DNA of 64,000 nucleotides from Shigella phage Sf25. A model generated the notes under the pieces. That model worked only from the letters and a program-made list of their open reading frames with translations, was not told where the DNA came from and made no database searches. Of the stretch, positions 1,328 through 59,299 are shown one piece after another; within the stretch, counting starts at the first letter, position 1, and each line of letters opens with the position of its first letter. The stretch lies in sequence record MF327009; one strand, written 5' to 3'. A program made the position numbers and the translations under genes.

Positions 1328-2395
1328 TTATGGATAGGTATAGATGATACCAGTTTCTAAAGCAGTTTTATGAATGATGTATCCATTACGTGATTCTTGA
1401 ACATCAACTTCTGGATAGTCTTTCATCATCTTCTGAAGCGTATAACGATGCAAGTAGTATTTACTATCTGGATCGTCAGTTTTCCAATCTTTACCTTCTT
1501 CGGTCATTTTTTGGATTTCATCCATAACCCACCAACCACACCAGATGTAAGCTGAAGTACGATGTGGAAGAGGATGAACATAAGGTAATTCACCTTCTGG
1601 CTCTGGAGCAACTTTATCAGTTACCTGAACTTGACCTTCCGCCGTAATAGTTTTGCTATCATAATCAGCAGCAGTAACAGTTGCAGTAACTTCAATAGTT
1701 TGACTTCCAATAGATGAGGTATCAATGGTATATACATTAGTTGACCCTTCTACAGGAGAAGAATCTTTCTTCCATGAATACGCAATTTGCGCTTCTTCTG
1801 GAGCATCAGTGACATTAGCAGTAAATGTAGCCGAAGCATCTTGTTGAACGTTAATAGAAGGAGGAGTCAATGTAACCTGTGGATTCATTGTCTTCTTATT
1901 AACTGTTAATGATACTTCATTCGAAGTAACTTCCTTTTCATTGTAATTTTCAGCAGTTACTTGGGCTACGCATTTAATTCTTTTTACTCCACTTGTAGTT
2001 GGAGTATAGCTAAATGTAGAGTTAGTTTCTCCACCAACTTGTGAATCATCTACATACCACTGATACGTAGCAGATGCGCCTGATGGCTGCGAAGCCAAAG
2101 CAGCGGTAAATTCAACAGCTGTTCCGATTACTCCTTCCGGAGGACTATTAGGAGTTACGGCTAAGGTAGTCGTCTGTGTCTTATTTTGAACTGTGATAGT
2201 TGTACTAATTTCAGCTGTTTCGGGACTACTATCGGCAACTTGATTTGTTGCAACTACTTTAATAGTCTTTTGACCGGCAGGTCCTTTTAATACATAACTA
2301 AAAGTTGCTTCAGCTCCATCTTGTGGAACATCATCTACAGTCCAAGCATATGTAATAGGTCCATCTCCAGTTTGACCACTGGGCGTAGCAGTAAA
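1328..2395 (-). CDS. hoc: Hoc (highly immunogenic outer capsid protein, Ig-like domains); 5' end missing, no ATG/GTG in the open frame upstream of TTG 2098
   Basis: Frame open from 2395 to 1328; translation ...FTATPSGQTGDGPITYAWTVDDV...ASATYQWYVDDSQ...ELPYVHPLPHR...IIYTYP matches recalled T4 Hoc from about residue 22; a TAA immediately precedes F22. Confidence 0.8.
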   Translation of the reverse strand, partial: FTATPSGQTGDGPITYAWTVDDVPQDGAEATFSYVLKGPAGQKTIKVVATNQVADSSPETAEISTTITVQNKTQTTTLAVTPNSPPEGVIGTAVEFTAALASQPSGASATYQWYVDDSQVGGETNSTFSYTPTTSGVKRIKCVAQVTAENYNEKEVTSNEVSLTVNKKTMNPQVTLTPPSINVQQDASATFTANVTDAPEEAQIAYSWKKDSSPVEGSTNVYTIDTSSIGSQTIEVTATVTAADYDSKTITAEGQVQVTDKVAPEPEGELPYVHPLPHRTSAYIWCGWWVMDEIQKMTEEGKDWKTDDPDSKYYLHRYTLQKMMKDYPEVDVQESRNGYIIHKTALETGIIYTYP

Positions 2396-3015
2396 TTAAT
2401 GTAATAAATTAAGCTAAATAATGTTTGGTGTGCAGAAGCATGCTCAAAACTAGTTGGGTGAGATTTCCAATCCGGAGTTTCAGCGATCCATTGATAAATC
2501 CACCAAGGAACAGTACAGAATCCTGGATTTTTTCCAATCAACTGAAGATTCGGGCTAAAGTTTTCCGGAAGAGTAAATACAGACGGCTTTTCAGATTCAA
2601 TAATCTCAGCTACAGCCTGTTCGAATTTTTCTTCAACAAAAGGAGTATCTTCAATCAAAACATCGGTATTTTCAGGAATTTTATCCGTTTCTACTACTTC
2701 AATTTTAATGTCAGATTTAACTGGAGAATCAATCAAAAGTGCTGCTTCTGGATTGACTTCTTCATCGTCATATTTTAATCCCTCTGCAGCATCAGCAGCA
2801 TCAATTAAGTCTTTAATAGATAACCCATCAGTCTCTGGCATAGGTTCACTAGCGAGCTTCTGGAGAGCTTCTTCAATATCAACAACGATATTATCAAAAG
2901 ATTTATTCTTTTTGACCTTTATACCAAACTGTTCAGCATATTCAGCTAATTTAGCTTTAGCTTCTTTGTTATCATCAAGAGCCTTCAGCTCTGCAATATA
3001 ATCTTTATCTATCAT
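2335..3015 (-). CDS. inh: Inh-like protein (prohead protease inhibitor); 3' end reads about 20 codons into the hoc region in another frame
   Basis: 226-aa ORF starting MIDKDYIAELKALDDNKEAKAK; position between hoc and uvsW as in T4. Confidence 0.6.
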   Translation of the reverse strand: MIDKDYIAELKALDDNKEAKAKLAEYAEQFGIKVKKNKSFDNIVVDIEEALQKLASEPMPETDGLSIKDLIDAADAAEGLKYDDEEVNPEAALLIDSPVKSDIKIEVVETDKIPENTDVLIEDTPFVEEKFEQAVAEIIESEKPSVFTLPENFSPNLQLIGKNPGFCTVPWWIYQWIAETPDWKSHPTSFEHASAHQTLFSLIYYINLLLRPVVKLEMDLLHMLGL

Positions 3016-3028
3016 AATATTTCCTCAG

Positions 3029-3036
3029 TATAAATA
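3029..3036 (+). promoter_or_regulatory. late promoter TATAAATA upstream of uvsW
   Basis: Exact TATAAATA about 30 bp upstream of the uvsW ATG. Confidence 0.55.
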
Positions 3037-3065
3037 TAGATATATTTATTACATGGTATTTAGAC

Positions 3066-4577
3066 ATGACTGACATTAAAGTACATTTTTATGATTTTAG
3101 TCACGTGAGAATTGATTGTGAAGAAAGTACATTTCATGAACTCCGTGATTTCTTTAGCTTTGAAGCTGATGGGTATCGTTTTAATCCGAAATACAAATAT
3201 GGCCACTGGGATGGACGAATCCGTCTTTTAGATTATAATCGTCTTCTTCCATTCGGCTTAGTCGGGCAAATTAAAAAGTTCTGTGATAACTTTGGCTATA
3301 AAGCCTGGATTGACCCACAAATTAACGAAAAAGAAGAATTATCAAGAAAAGATTTTGATGAATGGCTTTCTAAATTAGAAATCTATTCAGGAAATAAAAG
3401 AATTGAACCACACTGGTATCAAAAAGATGCAGTGTTCGAAGGATTAGTCAATCGTCGTAGAATTCTTAATCTTCCAACATCCGCTGGTAAATCGTTAATT
3501 CAAGCTTTGCTTGCGCGATATTATTTGGAAAATTATGAAGGTAAAATTCTTATCATTGTTCCAACAACTGCTCTAACAACTCAGATGGCTGATGACTTCG
3601 TTGACTATCGTTTATTCAGTCATGCAATGATAAAGAAAATTGGTGGCGGAGCATCAAAAGATGATAAATATAAAAATGATGCACCAGTCGTTGTTGGTAC
3701 ATGGCAAACTGTAGTAAAACAACCGAAAGAATGGTTCTCACAGTTTGGAATGATGATGAATGATGAATGCCATCTTGCTACAGGAAAAAGTATTTCATCT
3801 ATCATATCAGGTTTAAATAACTGCATGTTCAAATTTGGTCTATCTGGTTCATTACGTGATGGCAAAGCCAATATCATGCAGTATGTTGGAATGTTTGGTG
3901 AAATATTTAAGCCAGTAACGACTTCTAAGTTAATGGAAGATGGACAAGTAACTGAGCTAAAAATTAATAGTATTTTTCTTCGCTATCCCGATGAGTTCAC
4001 TACTAAATTAAAGGGAAAAACTTATCAAGAAGAAATAAAAATTATTACGGGGCTTAGTAAAAGAAATAAATGGATCGCTAAATTAGCTATTAAGCTTGCG
4101 CAAAAAGATGAAAACGCTTTTGTCATGTTTAAACACGTATCGCACGGTAAAGCTATTTTCGATTTAATTAAAAATGAATACGATAAAGTTTATTACGTAT
4201 CAGGGGAAGTTGATACCGAAACCCGCAATATAATGAAAACCTTAGCTGAAAACGGTAAAGGAATAATTATAGTAGCTAGTTATGGTGTATTTTCTACTGG
4301 TATTTCAGTTAAAAATCTGCATCACGTTGTTTTAGCACACGGTGTTAAATCTAAAATTATTGTATTGCAAACAATAGGTCGCGTATTACGTAAGCATGGT
4401 TCTAAAACAATCGCAACAGTCTGGGACCTCATAGATGATTGCGGTGTTAAGCCAAAATCTGCTAATACGAAAAAGAAATATGTTCATTTGAACTATCTTT
4501 TAAAACACGGCATTGATCGTATTCAGCGCTACGCAGATGAAAAATTCAATTACGTAATGAAAACAGTTAATTTATAA
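3066..4577 (+). CDS. uvsW: UvsW DNA/RNA helicase (SF2)
   Basis: 503-aa ORF; Walker A PTSAGKS and DECH box; matches recalled T4 UvsW. Confidence 0.95.
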   Translation: MTDIKVHFYDFSHVRIDCEESTFHELRDFFSFEADGYRFNPKYKYGHWDGRIRLLDYNRLLPFGLVGQIKKFCDNFGYKAWIDPQINEKEELSRKDFDEWLSKLEIYSGNKRIEPHWYQKDAVFEGLVNRRRILNLPTSAGKSLIQALLARYYLENYEGKILIIVPTTALTTQMADDFVDYRLFSHAMIKKIGGGASKDDKYKNDAPVVVGTWQTVVKQPKEWFSQFGMMMNDECHLATGKSISSIISGLNNCMFKFGLSGSLRDGKANIMQYVGMFGEIFKPVTTSKLMEDGQVTELKINSIFLRYPDEFTTKLKGKTYQEEIKIITGLSKRNKWIAKLAIKLAQKDENAFVMFKHVSHGKAIFDLIKNEYDKVYYVSGEVDTETRNIMKTLAENGKGIIIVASYGVFSTGISVKNLHHVVLAHGVKSKIIVLQTIGRVLRKHGSKTIATVWDLIDDCGVKPKSANTKKKYVHLNYLLKHGIDRIQRYADEKFNYVMKTVNL

Positions 4578-4602
4578 GGGCTTCGGCCCTTTGGAGAAAA
4601 AG

Positions 4603-4833
4603 ATGTTACTAGAATTTAAACAATTTCTTTATGAAGCTTCTATTGATGAATTTATGGGTAAAATTGCCTCTTGTCAAACATTAGAAGGTCTAGAAGAACT
4701 TGAAGCTTATTATAAGAAAAGAGTTAAAGAAACTGAATTAAAAGATACTGATGACATCTCAGTCAGAGATGCTTTGGCAGGAAAAAGAGCTGAATTAGAA
4801 GATTCAGACGATGAAGTAGAAGAAAGCTTTTAA
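4603..4833 (+). CDS. uvsW.1: UvsW.1 small acidic protein
   Basis: 76-aa ORF from ATG 4603 with GGAG ribosome-binding site; position as in T4. Confidence 0.6.
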   Translation: MLLEFKQFLYEASIDEFMGKIASCQTLEGLEELEAYYKKRVKETELKDTDDISVRDALAGKRAELEDSDDEVEESF

Positions 4834-4888
4834 ATTAAAAAAGGCCCAACCAAAAAGGAAGGGCCAAAACTATAGACTAAAGGTCACA

Positions 4889-5056
4889 CTATAGCAAAAG
4901 TTGTGTTTCATTTAATTGTTCTTCCGAACTTTCTGAAACTGGTAGTTCTTTAATGTAATTATAGCAAGGCCCAGGATGTACAGGACCTTTGTCTGTTTCA
5001 ACAACCAATGCAGAATCGATTGGAGTTTTACAGACAACACAAATCTTATCTGACAT
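4889..5056 (-). CDS. small CxxC zinc-ribbon-like protein (55 aa), uvsY.-2-like
   Basis: Manual translation MSDKICVVCKTPIDSALVVETDKGPVHPGPCYNY; not in the ORF track because under 60 aa. Confidence 0.4.
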   Translation of the reverse strand: MSDKICVVCKTPIDSALVVETDKGPVHPGPCYNYIKELPVSESSEEQLNETQLLL

Positions 5057-5082
5057 GATTGTCTCCTCTGAATTATATATCT

Positions 5083-5090
5083 ATTTATAC
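5083..5090 (-). promoter_or_regulatory. possible late promoter (TATAAATA on minus strand) upstream of the 55-aa ORF
   Basis: Plus-strand tatttata about 27 bp upstream of the minus-strand start at 5056. Confidence 0.35.
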
Positions 5091-5309
5091 AACTCTCATA
5101 TGCATATCAATGCCCATATCTTTAGAATAAAAATATTCATCAAGATATCCGGCAAATTTTCCTTTAATATAAAGGACATCTTCACCGCATGGATGGTCGG
5201 CCAGGATACGAATATCCTGACGCTTAAGATTATGCTTTTTCATTAAGAATTGAATTTCCGTTTCAAATTCTTCTTCATAATTAAAAGCATCATCAATGCT
5301 ATATCTCAT
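5085..5309 (-). CDS. hypothetical protein (74 aa), uvsY.-1-like
   Basis: ORF track; start overlaps the uvsY stop. Confidence 0.5.
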   Translation of the reverse strand: MRYSIDDAFNYEEEFETEIQFLMKKHNLKRQDIRILADHPCGEDVLYIKGKFAGYLDEYFYSKDMGIDMHMRVV

Positions 5310-5722
5310 TATTTTCCAGCCTCAAATGCTCGCATGTCTTGAATATGCTTAATAGCAAATCCGCGTGATTTAATAGCATCAAGAGCTCCGCTACAGAAAT
5401 CCAATAAAATTCCCCAATATTGCAATGAAGTATCAACTTTTAAAACATCCTTATCAGCTGATAGAACTGTCTTCATTTCTGATTTCTCATAACGGTCCAT
5501 ACTAAATTCATCACCATCTCCTCGTCCCGAGTAGTAGTCTAATTTAGCTTTAAGAGCAACTTTTTTCTGTGCATCAATTCTAAGCATTTCCTTTTTAATA
5601 CTTGAATGCTTATTGAGCCATTTACTATATAACATCACATTATTAGCTGCTTCATACTGTAATTTAGTCGAATCTATAAACACATCTTTCTTCAATTCTT
5701 CTTGAAGATCTTCTAATCTCAT
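5309..5722 (-). CDS. uvsY: UvsY recombination mediator
   Basis: 137-aa ORF MRLEDLQEELKKDVFIDSTKLQYEAANN; length and sequence match recalled T4 UvsY. Confidence 0.9.
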   Translation of the reverse strand: MRLEDLQEELKKDVFIDSTKLQYEAANNVMLYSKWLNKHSSIKKEMLRIDAQKKVALKAKLDYYSGRGDGDEFSMDRYEKSEMKTVLSADKDVLKVDTSLQYWGILLDFCSGALDAIKSRGFAIKHIQDMRAFEAGK

Positions 5723-5761
5723 ATTGTTCTCTATTCAATTGTTATTGGATGGACTTAGATT

Positions 5762-5788
5762 CATTATACCACGTTTATACGTGAAGCA
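5762..5788 (-). promoter_or_regulatory. MotA-dependent middle promoter for uvsY (MotA box aTGCTTCA plus -10 TATAAT)
   Basis: Minus-strand reading ATGCTTCAcgtataaacgtggTATAAT just upstream of uvsY; fits the T4 middle-promoter consensus. Confidence 0.55.
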
Positions 5789-6187
5789 TTATACTCTATT
5801 ACTGGAAGCCAGTTGCAGTTTTATCTGCTCAATATCATCGGGGTTATCGATGACCGAAAAGCGTATTTCTACTATCAGAGTATAATCATCATAAACTGGT
5901 ATTACATTAACTGCTAATTTATCAATACGTGGCTCGTAGTTTCTTACTGCGCTTTCAATGTTACGCTCAACAGTATCAGCAGTAAGAGGAGTCATATTCT
6001 CAAAAAGCTGATCAGATAAATCGCATCCAAACTCTGGGTCAAATGGCCTTGACCCTTTCCTGGTTGTAATAATTCCTAAAAGGCTATTTTTAATTGACCT
6101 TAATCCAAGAGATCTTGAAACATCTTTGTCCCAATCCATTTTCATTTCTGGGTCAATGTCAGAATAAAGCTTATTAATATTTGCCAT
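5789..6187 (-). CDS. 25: baseplate wedge protein gp25
   Basis: 132-aa ORF, length and position as in T4. Confidence 0.85.
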   Translation of the reverse strand: MANINKLYSDIDPEMKMDWDKDVSRSLGLRSIKNSLLGIITTRKGSRPFDPEFGCDLSDQLFENMTPLTADTVERNIESAVRNYEPRIDKLAVNVIPVYDDYTLIVEIRFSVIDNPDDIEQIKLQLASSNRV

Positions 6188-13078: not shown

Positions 13079-13108
13079 GGGGACCGAAAGGTCCCCATAT
13101 TTTTATTT
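13079..13108 (+). terminator. rho-independent terminator after gene 54 (GGGGACC-GAAA-GGTCCCC plus T-run)
   Basis: Perfect stem with GAAA loop followed by atatttttattt. Confidence 0.6.
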
Positions 13109-13393
13109 ACGGAATGAAATAAAAGCAGCAACTGAAGCAACTAAACTGTCTTCAATATAAACTTCAATTTTTACCGGAGCTTCTGACTCAAATTTACCTG
13201 TTACTACACCTTGGAAAATGCTTTCAGTCTGCTGTGGCTTTGAAAAATTTTCAGAAGGAAAAATTCCGAACTTTTTATCTGTTCCAAAAATTTTGATAAA
13301 TTCATCATAAACTGCTTCATTAAAAGCGTTATCAGCAGGAATAACGCCTTCAACTACAAGTTCTTGACCTAAAAAGCGTAAAGAAGATTTCAT
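13103..13393 (-). CDS. hypothetical protein (96 aa), alt-neighbourhood
   Basis: ORF track; preceded by an early-promoter cassette and ribosome-binding site. Confidence 0.5.
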   Translation of the reverse strand: MKSSLRFLGQELVVEGVIPADNAFNEAVYDEFIKIFGTDKKFGIFPSENFSKPQQTESIFQGVVTGKFESEAPVKIEVYIEDSLVASVAAFISFRK

Positions 13394-13400
13394 TTTGTGT

Positions 13401-13454
13401 TCCTCATGTTATGTCAGTAAGATTACTATAACACAACACGAGGGACTTGTAAAC
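13401..13454 (-). promoter_or_regulatory. early-promoter cassette (-35 GTTTAC, -10 TATAGT, RBS); 54 bp identical to 29491-29544
   Basis: Minus-strand GTTTACaag(18 nt)TATAGT then GAGGA; exact copy upstream of alc. Confidence 0.5.
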
Positions 13455-15511
13455 TACATCTTGAACTTTTTAGACATTCCGTTGATGTTAACCAAAGAAG
13501 CCAAGATTTGAGAAACTTCGTTTTCCTCTTCTTTTGATTCTTCTACGAGGAATTGATTAAACCCAGCCATTGGACGAACTTCGCCAGTTTCCATTAGATG
13601 ATCGCCATCATATACCGATTCTTCTAATTGTTCAGAAGGAGGAACGATTGTGCCTTCGATTAGATACTTGTTATAAGCAGTTTCTTTCATCATGTACGTG
13701 CTTACTTTATTAATCTTCAACAAAATTCCACGCGGTAGAATAACTTCAGCTTCTGATGGAAATCCTGATAAATGACCTGGAACGATAACTTTGATTCGCT
13801 CAGCTCCTTTAATTACCATACCCACGCTAGTTTCAGCATCTTCATTAGCATATGTAGAATGACTACCCATATGCATCAAATCTTCTGCATCAATGGAACC
13901 TTCTCCTTCACCAGAAAATACTGCGCCGGAATCATCTAGAGCCATATAGTTTTTACCATGCTCACCGAAGATATTTGGTTTAAGCGATGTTGATACGAAG
14001 TTCTTGAAATAGAACATTTTATTTTCAATGTTATGACGCAAAGTTTTAAAGGTAACTTCTTGCCCACGATAAAGAGTAGTTCCTGGAGGAAGAACTGAAC
14101 CTTTAGCAAATGCAGAATCCAACGTCTCGATGTGTTTAATAGCTCGTTCCATATATTCTTCACGGGTAGAATCAGGTTTACCTAAAAGGAACGAGTTCAT
14201 TTCAACATATGAATCTGCACAATAATCTTCAATTACATCAGACTCAGCCTGAGTTAATCCTTTTGGAGTTACTTCAGTGCTTGCGTATTCATATGCCTGA
14301 GCGGCAGATTCATTAATCAATTTATAAATGCCATTCATGACAAATTGAATAATAGCTGTCTTTTCATCTGGTGTAGCTTTAGAACCTTTAACTAAATCAT
14401 TGATAATTTTCTTAATAACATCAAAGCTATTAGAAATATTAATGTCAGCAAGATCGCTTAAAATTTTATCAGTTTTATAATCAAAGAATTCTTTATTCTT
14501 TAAATATTCTTGAGAACCTTGATATGTTATATCGCTCTGCAACTTGATAGATGGATCACGTAAACGTGCATGGGCTAATGCAATATGATTTCGGAAACTT
14601 TCTAGTTCATAATCGTTAGATTTAAAACGAGAAGCACTTCTCATACCACCGATAGCTCCTTTGCTAAAGTTTGAACCAATCTGAATAACGCCAGAGTTCA
14701 TCGGACCTTCTGCTTTATATACCGGAACTTTAGATTCAAACTCTTGATATTTCTTAGCAGCGAAGCTATCACCCTGAAGTGAAGCATCAACAGTAGAATA
14801 TTGAGCTTGTGCTGCTAATCGACGACTAATTTTAGTTTTCTGAATAACAGCTTGATCCGTGCGCTTATCATTTTCTAAAGCAATAGAAGCAGCAACAGCG
14901 ACAGCTTTAGGAACAGCATTACCTGTTTTAACGTCTACATAAACATCACCAACCTTTGATTCAACTTTTGTGAATAACTCAGTTGAAATAGGAGGTACAC
15001 CTGGAATGTCTTCTAAATTGGCATTTTTACGGTAAACCATAATATATGCATATTTCTTATCATAGTCCCAGATTTCCTTTAAAAGAACATATCGACCTGC
15101 TCCTTTAGTACGTACTAAACGGTCAGCAATAACTTGCATTTGACGAGCAGCGCCATTTGTTTTACTCTTTAGTACGCGGAATAAGCATGCATCAATTTTA
15201 TACTGTTTCATTGTTTGAAGAGCAGTATCAAAAACAGCATTAATGACGCCAATTGGATTTCCACCCAAGTTTTTAAGCTTGACTAACGATAATTTCTCGT
15301 TGACACCTATCATTACGATATGCATCATTTTGTCGCCTGGCTTAACGTTTTTATTCGTATCACCGCCAGAGGTGTATGTACAAAATCTAAATCCAGGAAG
15401 CACGCTTTCTTCACCGGCTTGAATAGCAAAAATTTGTGGTATTTTATGCTTAGGATTTAAGTTAACAACCGGCGCCGAAGCGCCGTCAAATAATTCTGTA
15501 ATAAGTTCCAT
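13454..15511 (-). CDS. Alt-like ADP-ribosyltransferase paralog (685 aa)
   Basis: N-terminus MELITELFDGASAPVVNLNPKHKIPQIF parallels the adjacent Alt; diverged over the whole length, so not a recent duplication. Confidence 0.7.
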   Translation of the reverse strand: MELITELFDGASAPVVNLNPKHKIPQIFAIQAGEESVLPGFRFCTYTSGGDTNKNVKPGDKMMHIVMIGVNEKLSLVKLKNLGGNPIGVINAVFDTALQTMKQYKIDACLFRVLKSKTNGAARQMQVIADRLVRTKGAGRYVLLKEIWDYDKKYAYIMVYRKNANLEDIPGVPPISTELFTKVESKVGDVYVDVKTGNAVPKAVAVAASIALENDKRTDQAVIQKTKISRRLAAQAQYSTVDASLQGDSFAAKKYQEFESKVPVYKAEGPMNSGVIQIGSNFSKGAIGGMRSASRFKSNDYELESFRNHIALAHARLRDPSIKLQSDITYQGSQEYLKNKEFFDYKTDKILSDLADINISNSFDVIKKIINDLVKGSKATPDEKTAIIQFVMNGIYKLINESAAQAYEYASTEVTPKGLTQAESDVIEDYCADSYVEMNSFLLGKPDSTREEYMERAIKHIETLDSAFAKGSVLPPGTTLYRGQEVTFKTLRHNIENKMFYFKNFVSTSLKPNIFGEHGKNYMALDDSGAVFSGEGEGSIDAEDLMHMGSHSTYANEDAETSVGMVIKGAERIKVIVPGHLSGFPSEAEVILPRGILLKINKVSTYMMKETAYNKYLIEGTIVPPSEQLEESVYDGDHLMETGEVRPMAGFNQFLVEESKEEENEVSQILASLVNINGMSKKFKM

Positions 15512-15514
15512 GAT

Positions 15515-17608
15515 TTATCCTTGAACGAACTTGTAAGGCATGTTTGTAATATCTATGCAAGACGCAATAATTCCAAGAGATGATTCTACTTTCTGTTTAA
15601 CGTTTGATGAAACAAATGATGCAAAGTCAACTCTGTCTTCTATTTCAATATCACCTGTCATTGCAACTACTTCGCCGGTTTCCATTAAATGGTCTCCATC
15701 ATAGATTACCGATTCGGTGAGCTCTTCCGTGGTCATAACTTCAGCTTGAATGAGTTTTGTATTATTAGACGTGGTTCCGTCATTATTAGAAGCATCAGTT
15801 ATTTTATTAACTTTGACCATCAATCCGCGCGGTAGAATAACTTCAGCTTCTGTTGCTATTCCGAGACTTCCTGGATATACAACATTAACTTTATGAGCTC
15901 CATCAATTGCCCATCCTATTTGAACTTTAACGTATTCAGGATTTTCTTTATACGCTCTTATTTCGTTTGGATTAATAGTTATTCCTTCTTCATTTTTATC
16001 AACTGTTAATTCATTGCGAGCTTCTGGTTCTAAAAGACCAATACCAGCATGTGTAATTCCAAAACGTCCAAAAATGATAGGAGTTAAAGAAGTAGATACA
16101 AAATTTCTGAAATAGAACACTTTATTTTTAACTAGTGCTTCGTATATAGGAGCAGTCATACTTTGAGCACGATAAACTGTGATGCCTTCCGGTATGCGGT
16201 CACCATTTTCAAAAGCTGAATCTAAGTTATTTATAGCAGATTCAATTTCTTTTTCACTCATTACATCATATCGTTCTGGATTGTAACGACCTAAAAGAAG
16301 ATTATTGATGTCAGTATATCCTGAACCGCAATATTCTCTAATGCCACGCTTTTGTGATGGAGTATATTTAGAACCATCGCGGGCAATAGTAATATCAATC
16401 ATTGGACCAGCACCAATTCCAGAAAAACTGTAAATCATTCGTTTGAGGAATTTAGTTTTTGCTGCGTTCCAGGAATTTTTAGTTATTTCTTCCCAGACTT
16501 CATCTGGTTGTCCTTTACGATTTTTATTATGATTAGCAAGCCATTTATCTTTATAATCTTCAAAGAATTGATTTACAGCTGCTGCGTATTTCTCTAAACA
16601 TTTTATTGAAGTAGTTGGTTCATTTTTAATTGCATTAAAAATTACTTCTTTAATTTTTTCTGAAACTTCACCGACTTGACTCATTGGAAAGAATTTATAA
16701 TCATAGTGAAGTTCATCTGCCGTTCCTTCGGCAATAATTTTTGCTGCCTTAGTTTTAGAAGCTAATGAATTAATTCCAAGCTTCATTTCTTCTGCTTCGG
16801 GAATTAAAGGTGCAGTAGTTGGTTTATTAAAATTAGCTGCTGTAGATTCATACTTCTGGAATAATTCACTTTCAAATCTAGAAGATTCCAATGACTGACT
16901 TTGTGCAATTGCTCTACGGGAAATTTTAACTTTAACGATTACAGCTTGGTCAGAACGTTTATCGTTTTCTTGTGCAATAGATGCTGCAATTGCCTCATTT
17001 TTAGTTACTTGAGCTCCAGTATCTTTATTGATATAAACATCGCCAACTTTCGATTCAACTTTAGTAAAGAGCTCGGTACTAATTTCCGGAACTCCTGGAA
17101 TGTCTTCTAGCGATACATTTTTGCGATGTATAAGAATATATGCATACTTTTTATCATAATCCCAGAGTTCCTTAAGAAGGACGTATCTGCCACCTGAACG
17201 ACTACGGATAAGTCTATCAGCAATAACTTGAATTTGTCGAGCTTGACCAGCGGTTTTAGACTTAAGAATACGAAGCATACAAGCATCAATTTTATACTGA
17301 CGCATTGTTTGCATTGCAACAGTAAAAACTGAATTGATATAATTAATTGGGCTTGGACCAAGACCTTTTAATTTAGCAATTGAACCTTTAGCAGTTAATG
17401 TAAAAGGAACAATATGCATCATTTTATCGCCCATTTTTAAATCGCGATTAGTATCACCTCCAGATGTATAGGTACATAAACGAAAGCCTGGCTGTTCAAT
17501 TGCATCATCAACGTGAACTGAAAAAATTTGCGGTATTTTCTTCTTTGGATTTAAGTTTGTAATCGGAAGAGTAGTATCTTCGTCAAATAATTCTGTAATG
17601 AGTTCCAT
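15515..17608 (-). CDS. alt: Alt ADP-ribosyltransferase (packaged, injected with the DNA)
   Basis: ORF begins (M)MELITELFDEDTTLPITNLNPKKKIPQIF, matching recalled T4 Alt N-terminus; sits next to gene 30. Confidence 0.8.
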   Translation of the reverse strand: MELITELFDEDTTLPITNLNPKKKIPQIFSVHVDDAIEQPGFRLCTYTSGGDTNRDLKMGDKMMHIVPFTLTAKGSIAKLKGLGPSPINYINSVFTVAMQTMRQYKIDACMLRILKSKTAGQARQIQVIADRLIRSRSGGRYVLLKELWDYDKKYAYILIHRKNVSLEDIPGVPEISTELFTKVESKVGDVYINKDTGAQVTKNEAIAASIAQENDKRSDQAVIVKVKISRRAIAQSQSLESSRFESELFQKYESTAANFNKPTTAPLIPEAEEMKLGINSLASKTKAAKIIAEGTADELHYDYKFFPMSQVGEVSEKIKEVIFNAIKNEPTTSIKCLEKYAAAVNQFFEDYKDKWLANHNKNRKGQPDEVWEEITKNSWNAAKTKFLKRMIYSFSGIGAGPMIDITIARDGSKYTPSQKRGIREYCGSGYTDINNLLLGRYNPERYDVMSEKEIESAINNLDSAFENGDRIPEGITVYRAQSMTAPIYEALVKNKVFYFRNFVSTSLTPIIFGRFGITHAGIGLLEPEARNELTVDKNEEGITINPNEIRAYKENPEYVKVQIGWAIDGAHKVNVVYPGSLGIATEAEVILPRGLMVKVNKITDASNNDGTTSNNTKLIQAEVMTTEELTESVIYDGDHLMETGEVVAMTGDIEIEDRVDFASFVSSNVKQKVESSLGIIASCIDITNMPYKFVQG

Positions 17609-17644
17609 CATATCCTCTCTAGTGTTTATTCTATTTATAAAATT

Positions 17645-17662
17645 AAAGGCCCGAAGGCCTTT
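17645..17662 (-). terminator. hairpin terminator (AAAGGCC-CGAA-GGCCTTT)
   Basis: Perfect stem-loop; T-rich on the minus strand downstream. Confidence 0.5.
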
Positions 17663-22355: not shown

Positions 22356-22442
22356 TTTATTCTCCTTTGTTTCTGTAAGATAATACTAACACAAAGGAAC
22401 CATACTGTAAACAACTTTGTGCAATCTTTGGAAAATAAAAAA

Positions 22443-22460: not shown

Positions 22461-22465
22461 TCAAC

Positions 22466-22807
22466 TTATGCTTTCTGCTTACCAAAACGAGAAGCATCAT
22501 CTCGAAGAACCGCACGTGCTCGGCGCATGATCTTCTCAACAGTTTGATTGATACGAGAGTTCGACCCACGCTTGTAGCCAGCGCGTTTAGAATCACCAAC
22601 TTTCTTTTCAACTGCTTTCTTTGCTTTAGCTTGTTTTTTCTGCTTACCAAAACGAGAAGCATCATCTCGAAGAACCGCACGTGCTCGGCGCATGATCTTC
22701 TCAACAGTTTGATTGATACGAGAGTTCGACCCACGCTTGTAGCCAGCGCGTTTAGAATCACCAACTTTCTTTTCAACTGCTTTCTTTGCTTTAGCTTGTT
22801 TTGCCAT
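22466..22807 (-). CDS. small highly basic protein, expanded from about 58 to 113 aa by an in-frame 165-bp tandem duplication
   Basis: Translation MAKQAKAKKAVEKKVGDSKRAGYKRGSNSRINQTVEKIMRRARAVLRDDASRF with the 55-aa block repeated exactly. Confidence 0.55.
   Translation of the reverse strand: MAKQAKAKKAVEKKVGDSKRAGYKRGSNSRINQTVEKIMRRARAVLRDDASRFGKQKKQAKAKKAVEKKVGDSKRAGYKRGSNSRINQTVEKIMRRARAVLRDDASRFGKQKA
22472..22801. repeat. exact tandem duplication, 2 x 165 bp (22472-22636 and 22637-22801), in-frame
   Basis: Identical nucleotide units; boundary ambiguous by 1 bp. Confidence 0.9.
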
Positions 22808-28196: not shown

Positions 28197-28639
28197 TTAT
28201 CCTCTTTTAACTCTTGACGATAATAACATATCATAGTTTTCTGATCATGTACATATCGTTTTACATCATTAAGCCAAATGCGAAATTCCTGGGAATCTTC
28301 AAATGGCATACCGACCCAAGCTTTACCATCAATAACTTTAACTTGCCAGGATAGTTTAGCTTCATCGTATGACTTTATTTGTACTGGCCAATTAGGATGA
28401 ACTGTTTCTTTCTTTACTTCTAGAGGCTTTGTCGAACAACCAACTAGAAGACCAATAGATAATATTACCCAAGCTTTACCATCAATAACTTTAACTTGCC
28501 AGGATAGTTTAGCTTCATCGTATGACTTTATTTGTACTGGCCAATTAGGATGAACTGTTTCTTTCTTTACTTCTAGAGGCTTTGTCGAACAACCAACTAG
28601 AAGACCAATAGATAATATTACTGCTGATAGTTTAATCAT
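28187..28639 (-). CDS. putative lipoprotein, expanded from about 99 to 150 aa by an in-frame 153-bp tandem duplication
   Basis: Signal/lipobox-like LSIGLLVGC-S; the 51-aa block ILSIGLLVGCSTKPLEVKK...DGKAWV is repeated exactly, giving two lipobox copies. Confidence 0.5.
   Translation of the reverse strand: MIKLSAVILSIGLLVGCSTKPLEVKKETVHPNWPVQIKSYDEAKLSWQVKVIDGKAWVILSIGLLVGCSTKPLEVKKETVHPNWPVQIKSYDEAKLSWQVKVIDGKAWVGMPFEDSQEFRIWLNDVKRYVHDQKTMICYYRQELKEDKCK
28314..28619. repeat. exact tandem duplication, 2 x 153 bp (28314-28466 and 28467-28619), in-frame
   Basis: Identical nucleotide units. Confidence 0.9.
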
Positions 28640-28989
28640 TTAGAAAGGTCCTGGATGTCTTCTGCGAACTTGTTGAAGGAGTTGTTGATTTGTTTTTCAA
28701 CCAATCCTGGCTTACTAGCCACCACATCCGCCTTCTTTGCGTCTTTGCGCAGCTTTTCATTTTCACGCTCAATAGCAGCAATTGCCTCACGATTTTTATT
28801 ATTCATTGCATCAATATAATTATATTGATTTTTTAAATCATTTAATGCTAAAGCATTTTCATTAGCAGTTTTTGTAATTTCTACGACAGACGTTTCTAAT
28901 CTTTCAATTTTGTGTTTTAAAACTAAAGAAGTTCCGCCCAATATAATTACAATTAATAGTAAACCTGCTGTAGTATTACTTAATTGCAT
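28636..28989 (-). CDS. hypothetical membrane-anchored protein (117 aa)
   Basis: ORF track; N-terminal hydrophobic segment LLLIVIILGGTSLVL. Confidence 0.45.
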   Translation of the reverse strand: MQLSNTTAGLLLIVIILGGTSLVLKHKIERLETSVVEITKTANENALALNDLKNQYNYIDAMNNKNREAIAAIERENEKLRKDAKKADVVASKPGLVEKQINNSFNKFAEDIQDLSK

Positions 28990-29483
28990 AAAGTTTTAAT
29001 AACCTCTATAATATCGTCTTGAGAAAGACCGTTAATTAAAATATGATGTTCAGCTGGAGATTTAGAAATTTTAAAGCATGCCGCAACATCTTCTGCCATA
29101 TCTGATGCACTACGATTTGGATTACTAATTCCAAGACGATGCTTTCCAGTCAAAGGATTAACGATGATATAGCATTTGCAGCTATTGATATGAACATTAG
29201 GCTGAGTCTGATTAATGAATACTTCGCACTCATACTTAGCGAGTTGATTTTCTAAAAAGACTTTCATCTCCTCAACCGCATCAGGAAGCATATCACGGGC
29301 TTGCTCAAGACGACGATTTCGATATTCTTTAATGGTCGTTTTCCGCTTGACTTGCTTAGCTAAATCTTTCTTAAGATCGGTGATATATCCAACTCGACGA
29401 TTTCCTTTAAATACAGAAATCCCATCTGTAGTATCACCGTATGCTTCAACGACCATCTCAGTAGTAATAAGCTGCAAATCCAT
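28980..29483 (-). CDS. alc: Alc (inhibitor of host transcription on cytosine DNA)
   Basis: 167 aa from the second Met; position between pseT.x and rnlA as in T4. Confidence 0.7.
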   Translation of the reverse strand: MDLQLITTEMVVEAYGDTTDGISVFKGNRRVGYITDLKKDLAKQVKRKTTIKEYRNRRLEQARDMLPDAVEEMKVFLENQLAKYECEVFINQTQPNVHINSCKCYIIVNPLTGKHRLGISNPNRSASDMAEDVAACFKISKSPAEHHILINGLSQDDIIEVIKTLCN

Positions 29484-29490
29484 CATAAAG

Positions 29491-29544
29491 TCCTCATGTT
29501 ATGTCAGTAAGATTACTATAACACAACACGAGGGACTTGTAAAC
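29491..29544 (-). promoter_or_regulatory. early-promoter cassette upstream of alc; 54 bp identical to 13401-13454
   Basis: Same -35/-10/RBS cassette as at 13401-13454. Confidence 0.5.
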
Positions 29545-32383: not shown

Positions 32384-34897
32384 TCATAATTTACAGGATG
32401 AACAATCTTCAGCTTTTGGAGTTTCTATTTCATAATCATCAGTACCAGAACCGTCACGGGTATTATGATAATAGAAATTTTTTCCGCCAAAATACCAAAA
32501 ATATAAAAGGTCATCAATCATTATTGACATTGGAACCTTTCCTTTTGGAAAAATCTGCGGGTCATAATATGTATTAGCTGAAGCTGATTGACATACCCAT
32601 TTCAGCATAATAGCTACTTGCGTAAGATAAGGTTTATTGCCTTTCTTAGCTAATTTCCACGTATAATCATAGAGGTCTATGTTATGCTCAATATTGGGCA
32701 CGACTTGATTAAAGGAACCCTCTTTTGATTCTTTAACAGAGACTGGTCCACGTGGAGGCTCGATACCGTTTGTACTGTTAGAAACTTGGGAAGATGACTC
32801 ACATGGCATAAGTGCTGATAATGTGCTATTACGGATGCCAAAGAGCTTAAGGTCTTCCCGCAGCGACGACCAGTCACAAACGTATTTTGGAGCTGCGATT
32901 TGGTCAATCTTTTTATTGTACCAGTCGATAGGTAATTCGCCTCGAGACCAACGAGTGTCTGAATAATATTCGCAAGGTCCTTTTTCTTTGGCGAGCTTAA
33001 TGGATGCTTTAATGAGTCCATACTGTAATCTCTCAAATAGTTCATGTGTTAAATCGTTAGCATCTTCATAAGAAGCAAAATTACTTGCCAGCCAAGCTGC
33101 ATAGTTAGTAACACCTACACCAAGATTTCGACGCTTTTTAGCTTTTTCTGCTTCAGGAACTGGATATCCTTGGTAATCCAAAAGATTATCAAGAGCACGA
33201 ACTTGGACTTCTGCCAATTCATTAATTTTATCTTGGTCTTGCCAATCAAAGTTATCTAACACAAATGCAGATAACGTACACAATCCAATTTCAGCATCAG
33301 GACTATTCACATCATTTGTTGGAATAGCAATTTCACAGCACAAGTTGCTCTGACGAATAGGTGCCTTTTCACGAATAAACGGAGTATAGTTATTCGTATT
33401 ATCTATGAACTGTACATAAATCCTTGCTGTTCCTGAGCGTTCAGTCATGAGCAATTCAAATAGTTCACGGGCTTTAATACGCTTTTTACGAATATTAGGG
33501 TCTTTTTCTGCTGCTTCGTATAATTCACGGAAACGGTCTTGGTCTTTAAAATAAGAATAATAAAGCTCGCCACCCATTTCATGCGGACTGAACAAAGTAA
33601 TGTAATCGTTCTTTCCGAATCGTTCCATCATCAAATCATTCAGCTGAACACCATAATCCATATGACGGATACGGTTTTCTTCTACACCTTTGTTATTTTT
33701 CAAAACGAGAAGATTTTCAACTTCCAAATGCCAAATAGGATAATAAGCAGTAGCAGCGCCGCCACGAATTCCACCCTGTGAGCATGATTTAACAGCAGTC
33801 TGAAAATGTTTCCAAAAAGGAATAACACCAGTATGGCGTACTTCACCTGTGCCAATCTTAGAACCTTCGGCACGAATCATACCAACGTTAATACCAATTC
33901 CATAATCCATATGACGGATACGGTTTTCTTCTACACCTTTGTTATTTTTCAAAACGAGAAGATTTTCAACTTCCAAATGCCAAATAGGATAATAAGCAGT
34001 AGCAGCGCCGCCACGAATTCCACCCTGTGAGCATGATTTAACAGCAGTCTGAAAATGTTTCCAAAAAGGAATAACACCAGTATGGCGTACTTCACCTGTG
34101 CCAATCTTAGAACCTTCGGCACGAATCATACCAACGTTAATACCAATTCCAGCGCGTTTGGAGATATATTCAACAATTGAAGCAGAAGCCTTATTGATAG
34201 ACTTTAATGAATCACCTGCTTCAATAACAACGCATGAACTAAACTGCCGAGTTGGAGTACGGCAACCAGCCATAATAGGAGTTGGCAGTGAAATCTGTCG
34301 AGTAGATACTGCTTCATAAAAACGGATAACGTGTTTTAATCTATCAACAGGTTCATCTTGATGCAATGCCATTCCAATAGTCATAAATGCAAACTGTGGA
34401 GTTTCATAAATTTGACCAGTGGTTTTATCTTTAACTAGATATTTTTCTTTTAATTGCATCGCCCCGGAATAAGTAAATTCCATATCCCGCTCGTGCTTAA
34501 TTTTTGATTCTAAAAATGTAATTTCTTCGGCAGAATATTTTGACAACAATTCAGGGTCATATTTACCTTCATTTACACAGTAAGAAATGTGGTCAATAAA
34601 TGAACGTGGTTCATACTGCCCATAAACATGCTTACGAAGAGCGAACATTAAACAGCGTGCAGCTACATATTGATAATCAGGCTCTTCAACTGAAATAGAA
34701 TTCGCAGCAGCCTTAATTACAATGGTTTGAATGTCATCAGTTGTCATTCCATCACGGAGATATGATTTAATATTTTCATATAATTCATAAGGATCTACAG
34801 ATGTTCCTTCAGCTGCCCAAGATAAAACTTTAATAATTTTTTGCGGGTCAAAGCTCTGAGAAACACCACTACTTTTGATAACATTAATTAATTGCAT
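32384..34897 (-). CDS. nrdA: ribonucleotide reductase large subunit carrying an in-frame 249-bp tandem duplication (837 aa versus 754 aa expected)
   Basis: MQLINVIKSSGVSQSFDPQKI...; 83-aa block GIGINVGMIRAEGSKIG...NRIRHMDY repeated exactly. Confidence 0.9.
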   Translation of the reverse strand: MQLINVIKSSGVSQSFDPQKIIKVLSWAAEGTSVDPYELYENIKSYLRDGMTTDDIQTIVIKAAANSISVEEPDYQYVAARCLMFALRKHVYGQYEPRSFIDHISYCVNEGKYDPELLSKYSAEEITFLESKIKHERDMEFTYSGAMQLKEKYLVKDKTTGQIYETPQFAFMTIGMALHQDEPVDRLKHVIRFYEAVSTRQISLPTPIMAGCRTPTRQFSSCVVIEAGDSLKSINKASASIVEYISKRAGIGINVGMIRAEGSKIGTGEVRHTGVIPFWKHFQTAVKSCSQGGIRGGAATAYYPIWHLEVENLLVLKNNKGVEENRIRHMDYGIGINVGMIRAEGSKIGTGEVRHTGVIPFWKHFQTAVKSCSQGGIRGGAATAYYPIWHLEVENLLVLKNNKGVEENRIRHMDYGVQLNDLMMERFGKNDYITLFSPHEMGGELYYSYFKDQDRFRELYEAAEKDPNIRKKRIKARELFELLMTERSGTARIYVQFIDNTNNYTPFIREKAPIRQSNLCCEIAIPTNDVNSPDAEIGLCTLSAFVLDNFDWQDQDKINELAEVQVRALDNLLDYQGYPVPEAEKAKKRRNLGVGVTNYAAWLASNFASYEDANDLTHELFERLQYGLIKASIKLAKEKGPCEYYSDTRWSRGELPIDWYNKKIDQIAAPKYVCDWSSLREDLKLFGIRNSTLSALMPCESSSQVSNSTNGIEPPRGPVSVKESKEGSFNQVVPNIEHNIDLYDYTWKLAKKGNKPYLTQVAIMLKWVCQSASANTYYDPQIFPKGKVPMSIMIDDLLYFWYFGGKNFYYHNTRDGSGTDDYEIETPKAEDCSSCKL
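33651..34148. repeat. exact tandem duplication, 2 x 249 bp (33651-33899 and 33900-34148), in-frame within nrdA
   Basis: Identical nucleotide units; boundary ambiguous by 3 bp. Confidence 0.9.
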
Positions 34898-34915: not shown

Positions 34916-35271
34916 TCGTCTTTAAACAATCGGTTAACTATATGAGCTATTATATCACCATGACACGGCTTTGGTTTACATGTGCATCCTAGCCTCATTC
35001 CACGTAAAGGCTCTAAATGTGCTTTAGTTATTTCTCCGGATTTAATTCGACGTATAAAATCTTTTTTGAATAATTCAATGGCAGCCTCCCGGCTCGTCTT
35101 TAAACAATCGGTTAACTATATGAGCTATTATATCACCATGACACGGCTTTGGTTTACATGTGCATCCTAGCCTCATTCCACGTAAAGGCTCTAAATGTGC
35201 TTTAGTTATTTCTCCGGATTTAATTCGACGTATAAAATCTTTTTTGAATAATTCAATGGCAGCCTCCCGGC
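34916..35271. repeat. exact tandem duplication, 2 x 178 bp (34916-35093 and 35094-35271), just upstream of the nrdA start
   Basis: Identical units; unit length not a multiple of 3; replaces the 3' end of the upstream ORF. Confidence 0.9.
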
Positions 35272-38302: not shown

Positions 38303-38440
38303 TTTATTCTCCTTAGCAAGCTTTAATCAAAAGATATAAACAGACCAACATAACTGCTGCCATAATATAAGGTGCGAACATTTTCTTTTCTCCATTAGTT
38401 TTGATAGGGTAATAGTATCACACTACTACCCTTCTGTAAA

Positions 38441-38887
38441 CTACTTTTTGAAAGTTTTTCGCAAAAGTTCAATGATTTCATCTACATTGTTTTCGTCAAC
38501 AATGCAGTGAATTTTTGTTACGCCAGAAACCTTGTCTATGACTTCATCTACATTGTTTTCGTCAACAATGCAGTGAATTTTTGTTACGCCAGAAACCTTG
38601 TCTTTGACTTCATCTTCTTCAGAAGTCGGTTCTTTATACTCACGAAAACAATGAAATTCATCTTCGCAAATTTCTAAAAGTCTATCTTTGAGGTAAAAAT
38701 GCTTTCCATTTGCGCATTCAATGTGTTTTACTGCTTTATATCCATTAGCGACGGAAACTTCTTTAACTTCAAACCATCCGCCATTATCTCGAATAGCTTT
38801 AACGATTGATGAATTAGAACGTGGGCTATAATTAATAAATGTATCAATAAGTCTTGGAACAAGTTCATACTTTTTGCCAATATACAT
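38441..38887 (-). CDS. hypothetical protein (148 aa) with an internal 22-aa tandem repeat
   Basis: ORF track; ...VKDKVSGVTKIHCIVDENNVDE VIDKVSGVTKIHCIVDENNVDE.... Confidence 0.45.
   Translation of the reverse strand: MYIGKKYELVPRLIDTFINYSPRSNSSIVKAIRDNGGWFEVKEVSVANGYKAVKHIECANGKHFYLKDRLLEICEDEFHCFREYKEPTSEEDEVKDKVSGVTKIHCIVDENNVDEVIDKVSGVTKIHCIVDENNVDEIIELLRKTFKK
38472..38615. repeat. near-exact tandem repeat, 66-bp unit, about 2.2 copies, 2 mismatches
   Basis: Position i matches i+66 across 38472-38549 except at 38476 and 38538. Confidence 0.8.
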
Positions 38888-39158: not shown

Positions 39159-39200
39159 ATTATTTTCCTCTTTAATCATCAGCAGTATTGCCGATAGTTG

Positions 39201-39230
39201 TATAGTACCATGGAAGGACAAGGATGTAAA
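39201..39230 (-). promoter_or_regulatory. early promoter (-35 GTTTAC, -10 TACTAT) with AT-rich upstream element
   Basis: Minus-strand GGTTTACatccttgtccttccatggTACTAT; cassette recurs at 55870-55899 and 59253-59282. Confidence 0.5.
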
Positions 39231-39244
39231 CCGTTTTGTGAAAA

Positions 39245-39281
39245 AAATTTTTGAAATAAAAAGGGGACCTCTAGGGTCCCC
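39245..39281 (-). terminator. rho-independent terminator after gene 32 (GGGGACC-CTAGA-GGTCCCC plus U-run)
   Basis: Strong stem-loop followed on the minus strand by ttttatttcaaaaattttttt. Confidence 0.65.
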
Positions 39282-39303
39282 AATTAATTAGTAATATAAT
39301 CTA

Positions 39304-55828: not shown

Positions 55829-55869
55829 TTTCTAATCTCCGTAATTCTGTATCAGTAGTTGATAGTTGT

Positions 55870-55899
55870 ATAGTACCACAGTATGCTTTGGTTGTAAAC
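55870..55899 (-). promoter_or_regulatory. early promoter for motA (-35 GTTTAC, -10 TACTAT)
   Basis: Minus-strand GGTTTACaaccaaagcatactgtggTACTAT with AT-rich upstream element; motA is an immediate-early gene in T4. Confidence 0.55.
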
Positions 55900-55930
55900 C
55901 GTTTTGTGAAAAAATTTTTGAAATAAAAAA

Positions 55931-55950
55931 GGGAGAGCCGAGGCTCTCCC
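55931..55950 (-). terminator. rho-independent terminator (GGGAGAGCC-GA-GGCTCTCCC plus U-run)
   Basis: Strong stem-loop; minus-strand T-run follows. Confidence 0.65.
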
Positions 55951-55955
55951 TAAAA

Positions 55956-56105
55956 TTACTGCTCAAACACGATAACTATCATGATAACACGTTGAATTCC
56001 GAACGCAAGAAGACCTCCTGCTACGGCTGGAACAACACCTAAACCAGCCAGTAAAATGCTACCGGATACTAATGCAGCGCTTGTAATACCTATGAATGGA
56101 CTCAT
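55956..56105 (-). CDS. small hydrophobic membrane protein (49 aa)
   Basis: Manual translation MSPFIGITSAALVSGSILLAGLGVVPAVAGGLLAFGIQRVIMIVIVFEQ; overlaps the gene 52 stop. Confidence 0.4.
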   Translation of the reverse strand: MSPFIGITSAALVSGSILLAGLGVVPAVAGGLLAFGIQRVIMIVIVFEQ

Positions 56106-58718: not shown

Positions 58719-58961
58719 TTTCTGTTCCTCCGTAGTTGATAGGGTAATAATACCACAGAGGAACAGTCTTGTAAACAACTTTTTTAAAAATATTCGTAAT
58801 AAATGTGAATACCAACTACTACTGCTGAAACTTGCACAACCCACCACGCACAAGCAATAAGCACAGAATTCAAAATTTTCATAATAACCTCATCACAAAA
58901 GTAAATGTTAAACAAATTAATGGAATACTAATTAACCAAACGAAACACCACCATAATGAAC

Positions 58962-59225: not shown

Positions 59226-59252
59226 TTTCCGCTCCTCCGTAGTTGATAGTTA

Positions 59253-59282
59253 TATAGTACCACGGTCCTTGTGGTATGTAAA
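59253..59282 (-). promoter_or_regulatory. early promoter (-35 GTTTAC, -10 TACTAT)
   Basis: Same cassette as at 39201-39230 and 55870-55899. Confidence 0.5.
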
Positions 59283-59299
59283 CCGTTTTGTGAAAATTT

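Follow-up and report, generated by a model that had tools for sequence, protein, structure and literature searches.

The DNA analysed here is a 64,000-nt stretch of the genome of Shigella phage Sf25 (record MF327009; hereafter the window), with a G+C content of about 35%, whose source is a T2-like Tequatrovirus. Two adjacent long genes of the Alt family lie on its minus strand: alt (15515..17608, 697 aa plus the stop TAA at 15517-15515), which is the canonical Alt ADP-ribosyltransferase in its T2-type allele, and, just downstream, alt2 (13454..15511, 685 aa plus a TAG stop), a second Alt-family ADP-ribosyltransferase recognized by its open reading frame (ORF), BLASTP, PF03496 and PHROG 802. 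Both genes are intact. The original prediction for this region, made from the sequence without database searches, had announced two adjacent minus-strand ORFs of 685 and 698 aa, and both are there, at 13454..15511 and 15515..17611. The start at 17611 (698 aa), taken from the ORF list, lies one codon before a second ATG at 17608 that is most likely the true start of alt (697 aa, MELITE...), since a GAGAGG Shine-Dalgarno sequence stands 5 nt from this second ATG versus 2 nt from the first and since the T2 and T4 records also begin there, at MELITE. The T4 gene order is kept, with genes 29, 48 and 54 on the plus strand and alt.-3, the two long ORFs, alt.1 and gene 30 (DNA ligase) on the minus strand; both Alt-family genes occupy the place between gene 30/alt.1 and alt.-3/gene 54 that is the conserved Alt position of the Tevenvirinae. 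We consider it likely that alt and alt2 form a late two-gene operon and that both products are arginine-modifying ADP-ribosyltransferases (ARTs) that would be packaged, trimmed by the gp21 prohead protease and injected, with targets that may differ or overlap only partly.

The family assignment of the original prediction, which had called both proteins Alt-type ARTs, agrees with two profiles. PF03496 (ADPrib_exo_Tox, gathering cut-off 23.4 bits) matches Alt2 with 72.8 bits and Alt with 129.8 bits, and PHROG 802, annotated as ‘Alt-like RNA polymerase ADP-ribosyltransferase’, matches both proteins end to end (E 1e-256 and 2e-273), covering residues 1-685 of Alt2, N-terminal domain included, at E 1e-256. 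The N-terminal domain also corresponds to PF26846 (Tevenvirinae_ADPRT), which is precomputed on a 99%-identical Alt2 homologue and on the hybrid genes described below; a direct Pfam scan reported no PF26846 match. The catalytic residues of Alt2 are R482, S507-T508-S509 and E587-A-E589, and those of Alt are R480, S505-T506-S507 and E587-A-E589. Across 23 aligned Alt and Alt2 sequences, R482, S507, S509, E587 and E589 (Alt2 numbering) are invariant (23/23), and T508 is conserved in 21 of them. A single-sequence search of Alt2 against the PDB sequences gave no match at E<=0.01, and profile and fold searches were needed. Profile alignment to the C3-like ART 4xsg places Alt R482 on the catalytic Arg of the toxin and E587-x-E589 on its Q-x-E. 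For Alt2, an AlphaFold2 model (mean predicted local distance difference test score, pLDDT, 77) had 70 Foldseek matches in the PDB at E<=0.001, and the best 50 of these 70 were all ADP-ribosyltransferase toxins, headed by the Vis toxin 4xzk (E 1.4e-7, target TM-score 0.68) and including C3, Certhrax, iota-like toxins, CDTa and VIP2, all of them, with Vis, at probability 1.00. The original prediction had hinged on an ART fold and catalytic residues in the 685-aa protein: the residues R482, S507-T-S509 and E587-A-E589 are present, and the toxin matches of the model indicate that Alt2 adopts the ART fold. The Glu-x-Glu form of the ADP-ribosylating turn-turn (ARTT) motif goes with arginine as acceptor, and we predict that alt and alt2 encode paralogous arginine-type (R-S-ExE) mono-ADP-ribosyltransferases.

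The two proteins have parallel layouts, all encoded on the minus strand. In Alt2, a six-residue propeptide, MELITE (15494-15511), precedes an N-terminal domain (residues 7-238, 14798..15493), a helical middle region (residues 239-415, 14267..14797), the ART catalytic domain (residues 416-631, 13619..14266) with R482 (14066-14068), S507-T-S509 (13985-13993) and E587-A-E589 (13745-13753, with F584 three residues before), and a predicted C-terminal propeptide (residues 632-685, 13457..13618) that follows L-E-E631, aligned with LTE-619 of T4 Alt. In Alt, the N-terminal domain (residues 7-238, 16895..17590), 100% identical to that of T4 Alt from residue 41 on, is followed by the effector module (residues 239-632, 15713..16894), with the Arg of YRAQ (within 16163-16174), the STS motif (16088-16096) and E587-A-E589 (within 15824-15850). 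Pairwise alignment of the two gives 41% identity over the full length (BLASTP E 3e-164), far beyond chance, as expected from the tandem, substantially diverged paralogs of the original prediction. The identity is very uneven. It is about 67% overall in the N-terminal region (residues 1-238), falls to 15-25% in the middle (Alt2 residues ~239-420), the most diverged part, and is 30-47% in the catalytic region, where the two proteins also differ in the insert that separates STS from ExE; a short conserved patch around YDGDHLMETGE lies in the C-terminal tail. The N-terminal motifs quoted in the original prediction all occur in both proteins, but its description of this region as near-identical was overstated, each 40-residue block being 55-75% identical. 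Its view of the duplication as old holds: synonymous divergence (dS) between the paralogs is 1.2-1.8, that is, saturated, and the same tandem pair exists in the phages JS10 and SP18 of other genera. We conclude that the alt/alt2 duplication took place before several Tevenvirinae genera diverged.

Upstream of alt, a GC-rich hairpin lies 3' of alt.1 (17645-17662) and is followed by a T4-type late promoter box, TATAAATA (17632..17639, minus strand), ~24 nt upstream of the alt start codon. This box is a predicted promoter, a consensus match that rests on its position; the motif is not enriched in the window (8 found versus 9.3 expected). At the alt/alt2 junction (15512..15522, minus strand), an AAGGA Shine-Dalgarno sequence (15522-15518) overlaps the alt stop TAA (15517-15515), and 3 nt separate this stop from the alt2 ATG at 15511. 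Given this 3-nt gap, the good Shine-Dalgarno sequence and the lack of any promoter or terminator found between the two genes, alt2 is probably co-transcribed with alt in a late alt-alt2 operon. As a late promoter of alt2's own, the sole nearby candidate was a TATAAATA box at 16228-16235, 717 nt upstream and inside alt; the motif occurs at chance frequency and we set this box aside. The 3' boundary of the operon is marked by an early-promoter cassette (13401..13454, minus strand; GTTTAC-17-TATAGT, 5' untranslated region and Shine-Dalgarno sequence) that abuts the alt2 stop and drives alt.-3 (13103-13393, minus strand). These 54 nt (13401-13454) recur exactly at 29491-29544, likewise with the T4 early promoter (GTTTAC-17-TATAGT), 5' untranslated region and Shine-Dalgarno sequence, where the copy drives a 168-aa ORF (28980-29486, minus strand); the repeat resembles the mobile early-promoter cassettes of T4-type phages.

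T4 Alt is a head protein present in ~40 copies per head, and mass spectrometry has shown that gp21 cuts it after ITE-6 and LTE-619, taking off 6 N-terminal and 63 C-terminal residues (PMC5694885, PMC9026906). Alt2 has gp21 motifs at the homologous positions, ITE 4-6 and LEE 629-631, and all 23 aligned homologues keep [IL]-x-E6 and [LIM]-x-E631, with E6 and E631 invariant. Since both prohead-protease motifs mapped in T4 Alt are kept, Alt2 is probably packaged in the head, trimmed and injected in the same way. By analogy with T4 Alt, the course of events would be as follows: alt and alt2 would be transcribed together from the late promoter upstream of alt; Alt2 would enter the prohead core and be trimmed by gp21 after ITE-6 and L-E-E631, leaving a mature protein of ~69 kDa (residues 7-631, predicted mass 69.1 kDa); and this protein would travel in the head, be injected with the DNA and ADP-ribosylate host proteins on arginine as soon as infection begins.

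The second gene is widespread and constrained. Residues 117-685 of Alt2, the part without a T4 counterpart, reach at least 95% identity in 401 phage records, among them those of T2, RB18 and RB33, and the pairwise ratio of nonsynonymous to synonymous divergence (dN/dS) of alt2 is 0.02-0.04, from 51-105 synonymous differences among four phages. On these two grounds, alt2 is a live gene under strong purifying selection. It is kept in about three quarters of the matching Tequatrovirus records (401/544). The upstream gene is annotated as alt in the T2 record, too. Window Alt is 72% identical to T4 Alt overall, with 100% identity in residues 41-240, 13-32% in residues ~275-420 and 95-100% in the C-terminal tail, and two effector alleles circulate in Tequatrovirus, a T2 type (314 records, with at least 95% identity to the window) and a T4 type (212 records, with 60-80%).

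T4 itself holds only remains of alt2, which is intact in the window. The T4 genes alt.-1 and alt.-2 (NP_049810 and NP_049809) are nearly exact counterparts of Alt2 residues 1-55 and 62-116; compared with the window, an A-run in T4 is shorter by one A, a loss that puts alt2 out of frame, and T4 also lacks a 1.69-kb segment (13473..15164, minus strand), with the T4 junction in a 9-nt microhomology, CTAAA(A/G)AGT. The T4 state most likely reflects a secondary loss of alt2, since phage PYps10T combines the T4-type alt allele with an intact alt2. A different kind of loss is found in two isolates, ECML-134 and PST, as well as in two metagenome contigs, where a single 684-686-aa alt(N)::alt2(C) hybrid gene, annotated simply ‘alt’ or ‘Alt-like’, lies between alt.1 and alt.-3. 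Informative residues are all of the Alt type before a switch point; after it they are of the Alt2 type, with at most two exceptions per gene. The four breakpoints differ and all fall inside the N-terminal domain: at residues 44-55 in one contig (L007, P0003; locus 4001-6061), 99-103 in phage PST (L009; locus 1602-3662), 148-159 in phage ECML-134 (L008; locus 1602-3662) and 175-193 in the other contig (L006, P0005; locus 4001-6055). We considered that the hybrids might be assembly chimeras and excluded it: alt and alt2 share no exact stretch longer than 25 nt (17-19 nt in the N-terminal domain), which is below the k used by the assemblers (31, 99), and hybrids also occur in finished isolate genomes. 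For the same reasons, they appear to be real products of unequal crossing-over. Retention of the Alt2 effector in all of them is not read as a sign of selection because, with alt upstream and alt2 downstream, a deletion in this order can yield only alt(N)::alt2(C). In the finished isolate genomes the hybrid is the sole Alt-family gene at the locus, which suggests that the N-terminal domains of Alt and Alt2 are interchangeable.

Tandem pairs at the same locus, annotated alta and altb, are also found in Dhakavirus JS10 and Gaprivervirus SP18, and comparison of their parts gives two conflicting groupings, the N-terminal domain clustering by genus and the effector part by paralog type across genera. 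Thus, the two paralogs of one genome are 67% (window Alt and Alt2) or 65% (JS10 alta and altb) identical in the N-terminal domain and 34% in the ART domain in both cases. Across genera, N-terminal domains of the window or T4 are 42-46% identical to those of JS10 or SP18 alta, and lower still, 38-39%, to that of SP18 altb. Yet window Alt and JS10 alta, 46% identical in the N-terminal domain, share 93% identity in the ART domain, and for window Alt2 and JS10 altb the values are 46% and 59%; window Alt and T4 Alt show the reverse, 100% and 67%. The DNA agrees: nt 681-1937 of window alt are 80% identical to JS10 alta (1236-2492 of locus L010), with no detectable DNA similarity between the two genes outside this stretch, and the common block runs from the end of the N-terminal domain to about the C-terminal cleavage site. 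That the effector of window Alt is far closer to JS10 alta than to T4 Alt implies that an effector cassette, delimited approximately by residue 228 and the C-terminal gp21 site, has probably been exchanged between phage genera. The delivery parts (N-terminal domain and C-terminal propeptide) would accordingly co-vary with the phage lineage, whereas the effector part (helical region and ART domain), which differs between Alt and Alt2, would be swapped between genera. A search of a large protein database with an N-terminal domain profile, aimed at fusions, was uninformative: among the seven matches listed, none carried another effector domain, six being truncated Alt-like fragments (142-379 aa) with PF26846 and one a partial fragment without a Pfam match.

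The original prediction had set the pair apart from exact repeats elsewhere in the window, and rightly so, as the whole alt-alt2 region gives one colinear alignment, at 98.4%, to phage TadeuszReichstein. Those repeats include exact or near-exact head-to-tail duplications of 66-249 nt at 33651-34148, 62631-63128, 923-1326, 34916-35271, 22465-22794, 28314-28619 and 38469-38600. One of them, a 249-nt duplication inside nrdA, is private to the window sequence, the closest phage genomes holding a single copy (a 1001-nt query aligns to 752 nt, in two pieces), and may have arisen as an artefact of assembly, in the laboratory or as an inserted feature. There is also a family of 60-100-nt repeats with 61-80% identity (38401-38464, 39184-39290, 55852-55958, 58729-58799, 59236-59306 and 22372-22435) that hold GTAAAC and TATAGTA-like boxes, in some cases with a GC-rich hairpin after them, and look like early promoter/terminator cassettes between genes. 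Finally, 43806-44476 on the plus strand contains three 68-nt repeats (69-72% identity, spacing 120 and 483 nt) that look like a repeated protein motif.

A further question is whether Alt and Alt2 act on the same host proteins. Only T4 Alt is known to ADP-ribosylate RNA polymerase alpha at Arg265. In C3-like and iota-like toxins, the ARTT position three residues before the first Glu of the ExE motif is an aromatic substrate-recognition residue. This position is F584 in Alt2, Ile in window Alt and Pro in T4 Alt, and 12 of the 23 sequences in the alignment, Alt2 and its closest relatives among them, have Phe or Tyr there. Alt and Alt2 show essentially no relationship to each other in the helical region that precedes the ART core, and each type persists as a lineage of its own under purifying selection. 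Because the effector part differs between Alt and Alt2 and is exchanged between genera, they may recognize different or only partly overlapping host targets, a proposition to which we give about as much chance of being right as of being wrong. Several points weigh against our overall interpretation of an operon encoding two injected arginine ARTs. The ExE motif predicts arginine specificity and is silent on which proteins are modified, the late promoter box is a consensus match of a kind that occurs at chance frequency in the window, and the short L/I-x-E motifs could be conserved through common descent rather than because they are used. Our literature searches found no virion proteomics for Alt2 or for phages with two Alt proteins and no reported experiments on Alt2 (activity, cleavage or injection). 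In addition, either gene is dispensable in some phages, T4 living without alt2 and the hybrid-bearing phages without the Alt effector, a pattern that also fits partial redundancy.

The alternative that survives best takes up this last point and sees Alt2 as a redundant second copy, packaged and injected to modify the same targets as Alt (Arg265 of RNA polymerase alpha and other substrates), adding dosage or robustness. The shared catalytic motif (ExE, arginine type), the shared delivery parts, the natural loss of either gene (alt2 in T4, the Alt effector in ECML-134 and PST) and the fact that alt is non-essential in T4 (PMC9026906) speak for it. Nevertheless, we regard it as unlikely: the effector regions are only 15-47% identical and the ARTT loop differs, the paralog types remain distinct lineages in different genera (Alt2 grouping with JS10 altb and Alt with alta of the same phage), each paralog is under strong purifying selection, and pure redundancy does not predict the lasting retention of two diverged types. 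We find it very improbable that Alt2 is an active ART that is not packaged, being instead made late and acting on host or phage proteins in the infected cell like T4 ModA and ModB. These two non-packaged enzymes show that phage ARTs of the same clade work without packaging (PMC5512222), and nothing in the present analysis places Alt2 in virions; but Alt2 keeps an Alt architecture that ModA and ModB lack (ITE-6 propeptide, 67%-identical N-terminal domain, C-terminal cleavage motif and propeptide), and hybrids with an Alt N-terminus on an Alt2 body serve as the sole Alt-family gene at the locus in viable phages. Lastly, the idea that alt2 is a decaying duplicate (a nascent pseudogene), as the wrecked T4 homologue alt.-1/alt.-2 might suggest, or an assembly artefact, as the private exact duplications elsewhere in the window might, retains next to no probability and is already refuted by the intact 685-codon ORF with all its catalytic residues, the at least 95% identity across 401 records (T2, RB18 and RB33 among them), the dN/dS of 0.02-0.04 and the colinearity of the region with many independent genomes.

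We therefore retain, as the likely reading, a two-gene operon encoding two injected ARTs. A bolder version, which we put forward tentatively and rate at somewhat below an even chance, would have Alt2 as an injected arginine ART with host targets of its own, possibly in counter-defence or in translation or RNA metabolism rather than RNA polymerase, that has gone unstudied because T4 deleted it; the Alt family as a whole would then be polymorphic-toxin-like, its cassettes swapped between genera and reshuffled by unequal crossing-over between tandem copies.

The pair as such is already known, being annotated in about 400 phage records, T2 included, as ‘Alt’/‘Alt2’ (a BASEL record) or alta/altb, and RefSeq Tequatrovirus records list ‘Alt-like RNA polymerase ADP-ribosyltransferase (x2)’. 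The T4 record states that alt.-1 and alt.-2 ‘reflect an old duplication of the first part of gene alt’; Nolan et al. 2006 (PMC1524935) refer to duplicated alt genes among T4-like phages, a paper of 2026 mentions the duplication as well, and a literature search for ‘Alt2’ with ADP-ribosyltransferase and phage found nothing. The gene pair itself thus holds nothing new with respect to existing annotation and publications. What the present analysis adds to the original prediction is the mechanism of the T4 loss, the single alt::alt2 hybrids and the contrast between an N-terminal domain that follows the genus and an exchanged enzyme module. Alt is the textbook phage enzyme that is injected with the DNA to reprogram the host. 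Since 401 of the 544 matching Tequatrovirus records hold alt2 and T4 does not, the T4 picture of injected ADP-ribosylation may be incomplete for most of its relatives, therapeutic phages included, and the lack of reported Alt2 experiments in the papers searched fits the loss of alt2 from T4. The value of the locus lies in pointing to an unstudied, easily testable enzyme and in offering a clear case of modular effector exchange.

Among known systems, the closest is the same gene in other phages. ‘Alt2’ of the BASEL phage Bas43 TadeuszReichstein (QXV84768; ‘ADP-ribosyltransferase Alt2’ in record MZ501106) and the 685-aa ORF ‘alt.-1’ of T2 (AYD82791) are window alt2 under other names: the Alt2 proteins of Bas43, T2 and RefSeq Tequatrovirus records are 97.7-99.8% identical to it over residues 117-685 and occupy the same position, with no substantive difference, their labels ranging from ‘hypothetical protein’ to ‘Alt2’. 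T4 Alt (gpAlt, NP_049811; NAD+--arginine ADP-ribosyltransferase) has the same locus, architecture, R-S-ExE residues and gp21 motifs as the window pair. The upstream gene of the window is its ortholog, although with a T2-type effector allele only 67% identical in the ART domain, whereas Alt2 is only about 42% identical to T4 Alt. The alta/altb pairs of Dhakavirus JS10 (and JS98) and Gaprivervirus SP18 reproduce the tandem arrangement and locus of the window pair. JS10 altb groups with window Alt2 (59% identity in the ART domain, 45% in the middle region) and JS10 alta with window Alt, while the SP18 pair has no clear orthology to either type and the N-terminal domains of JS10 and SP18 are genus-specific (42-46% across genera versus 65-67% between the paralogs of one genome). 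More distantly, toxins of the C3-like, Vis, iota and VIP2 types (PF03496) have in common with Alt and Alt2 the ART fold, the catalytic Arg, the STS motif and the (Q/E)-x-E ARTT motif at a sequence identity of only 15-20%. Unlike these toxins, Alt and Alt2 carry a large insert between STS and ExE, a 240-residue Tevenvirinae-specific N-terminal domain and propeptides, removed by a protease in T4 Alt and presumably in the others, and delivery would be by ejection from the phage head rather than by secretion. Finally, the combination of a conserved delivery part with a variable, exchangeable effector recalls polymorphic toxin systems and the T4 internal proteins with their capsid-targeting sequence (PMC9026906); the Alt family has no sequence relationship to either, and the likeness that we propose lies solely in how these systems evolve, by fitting new effectors to a delivery part that is kept.

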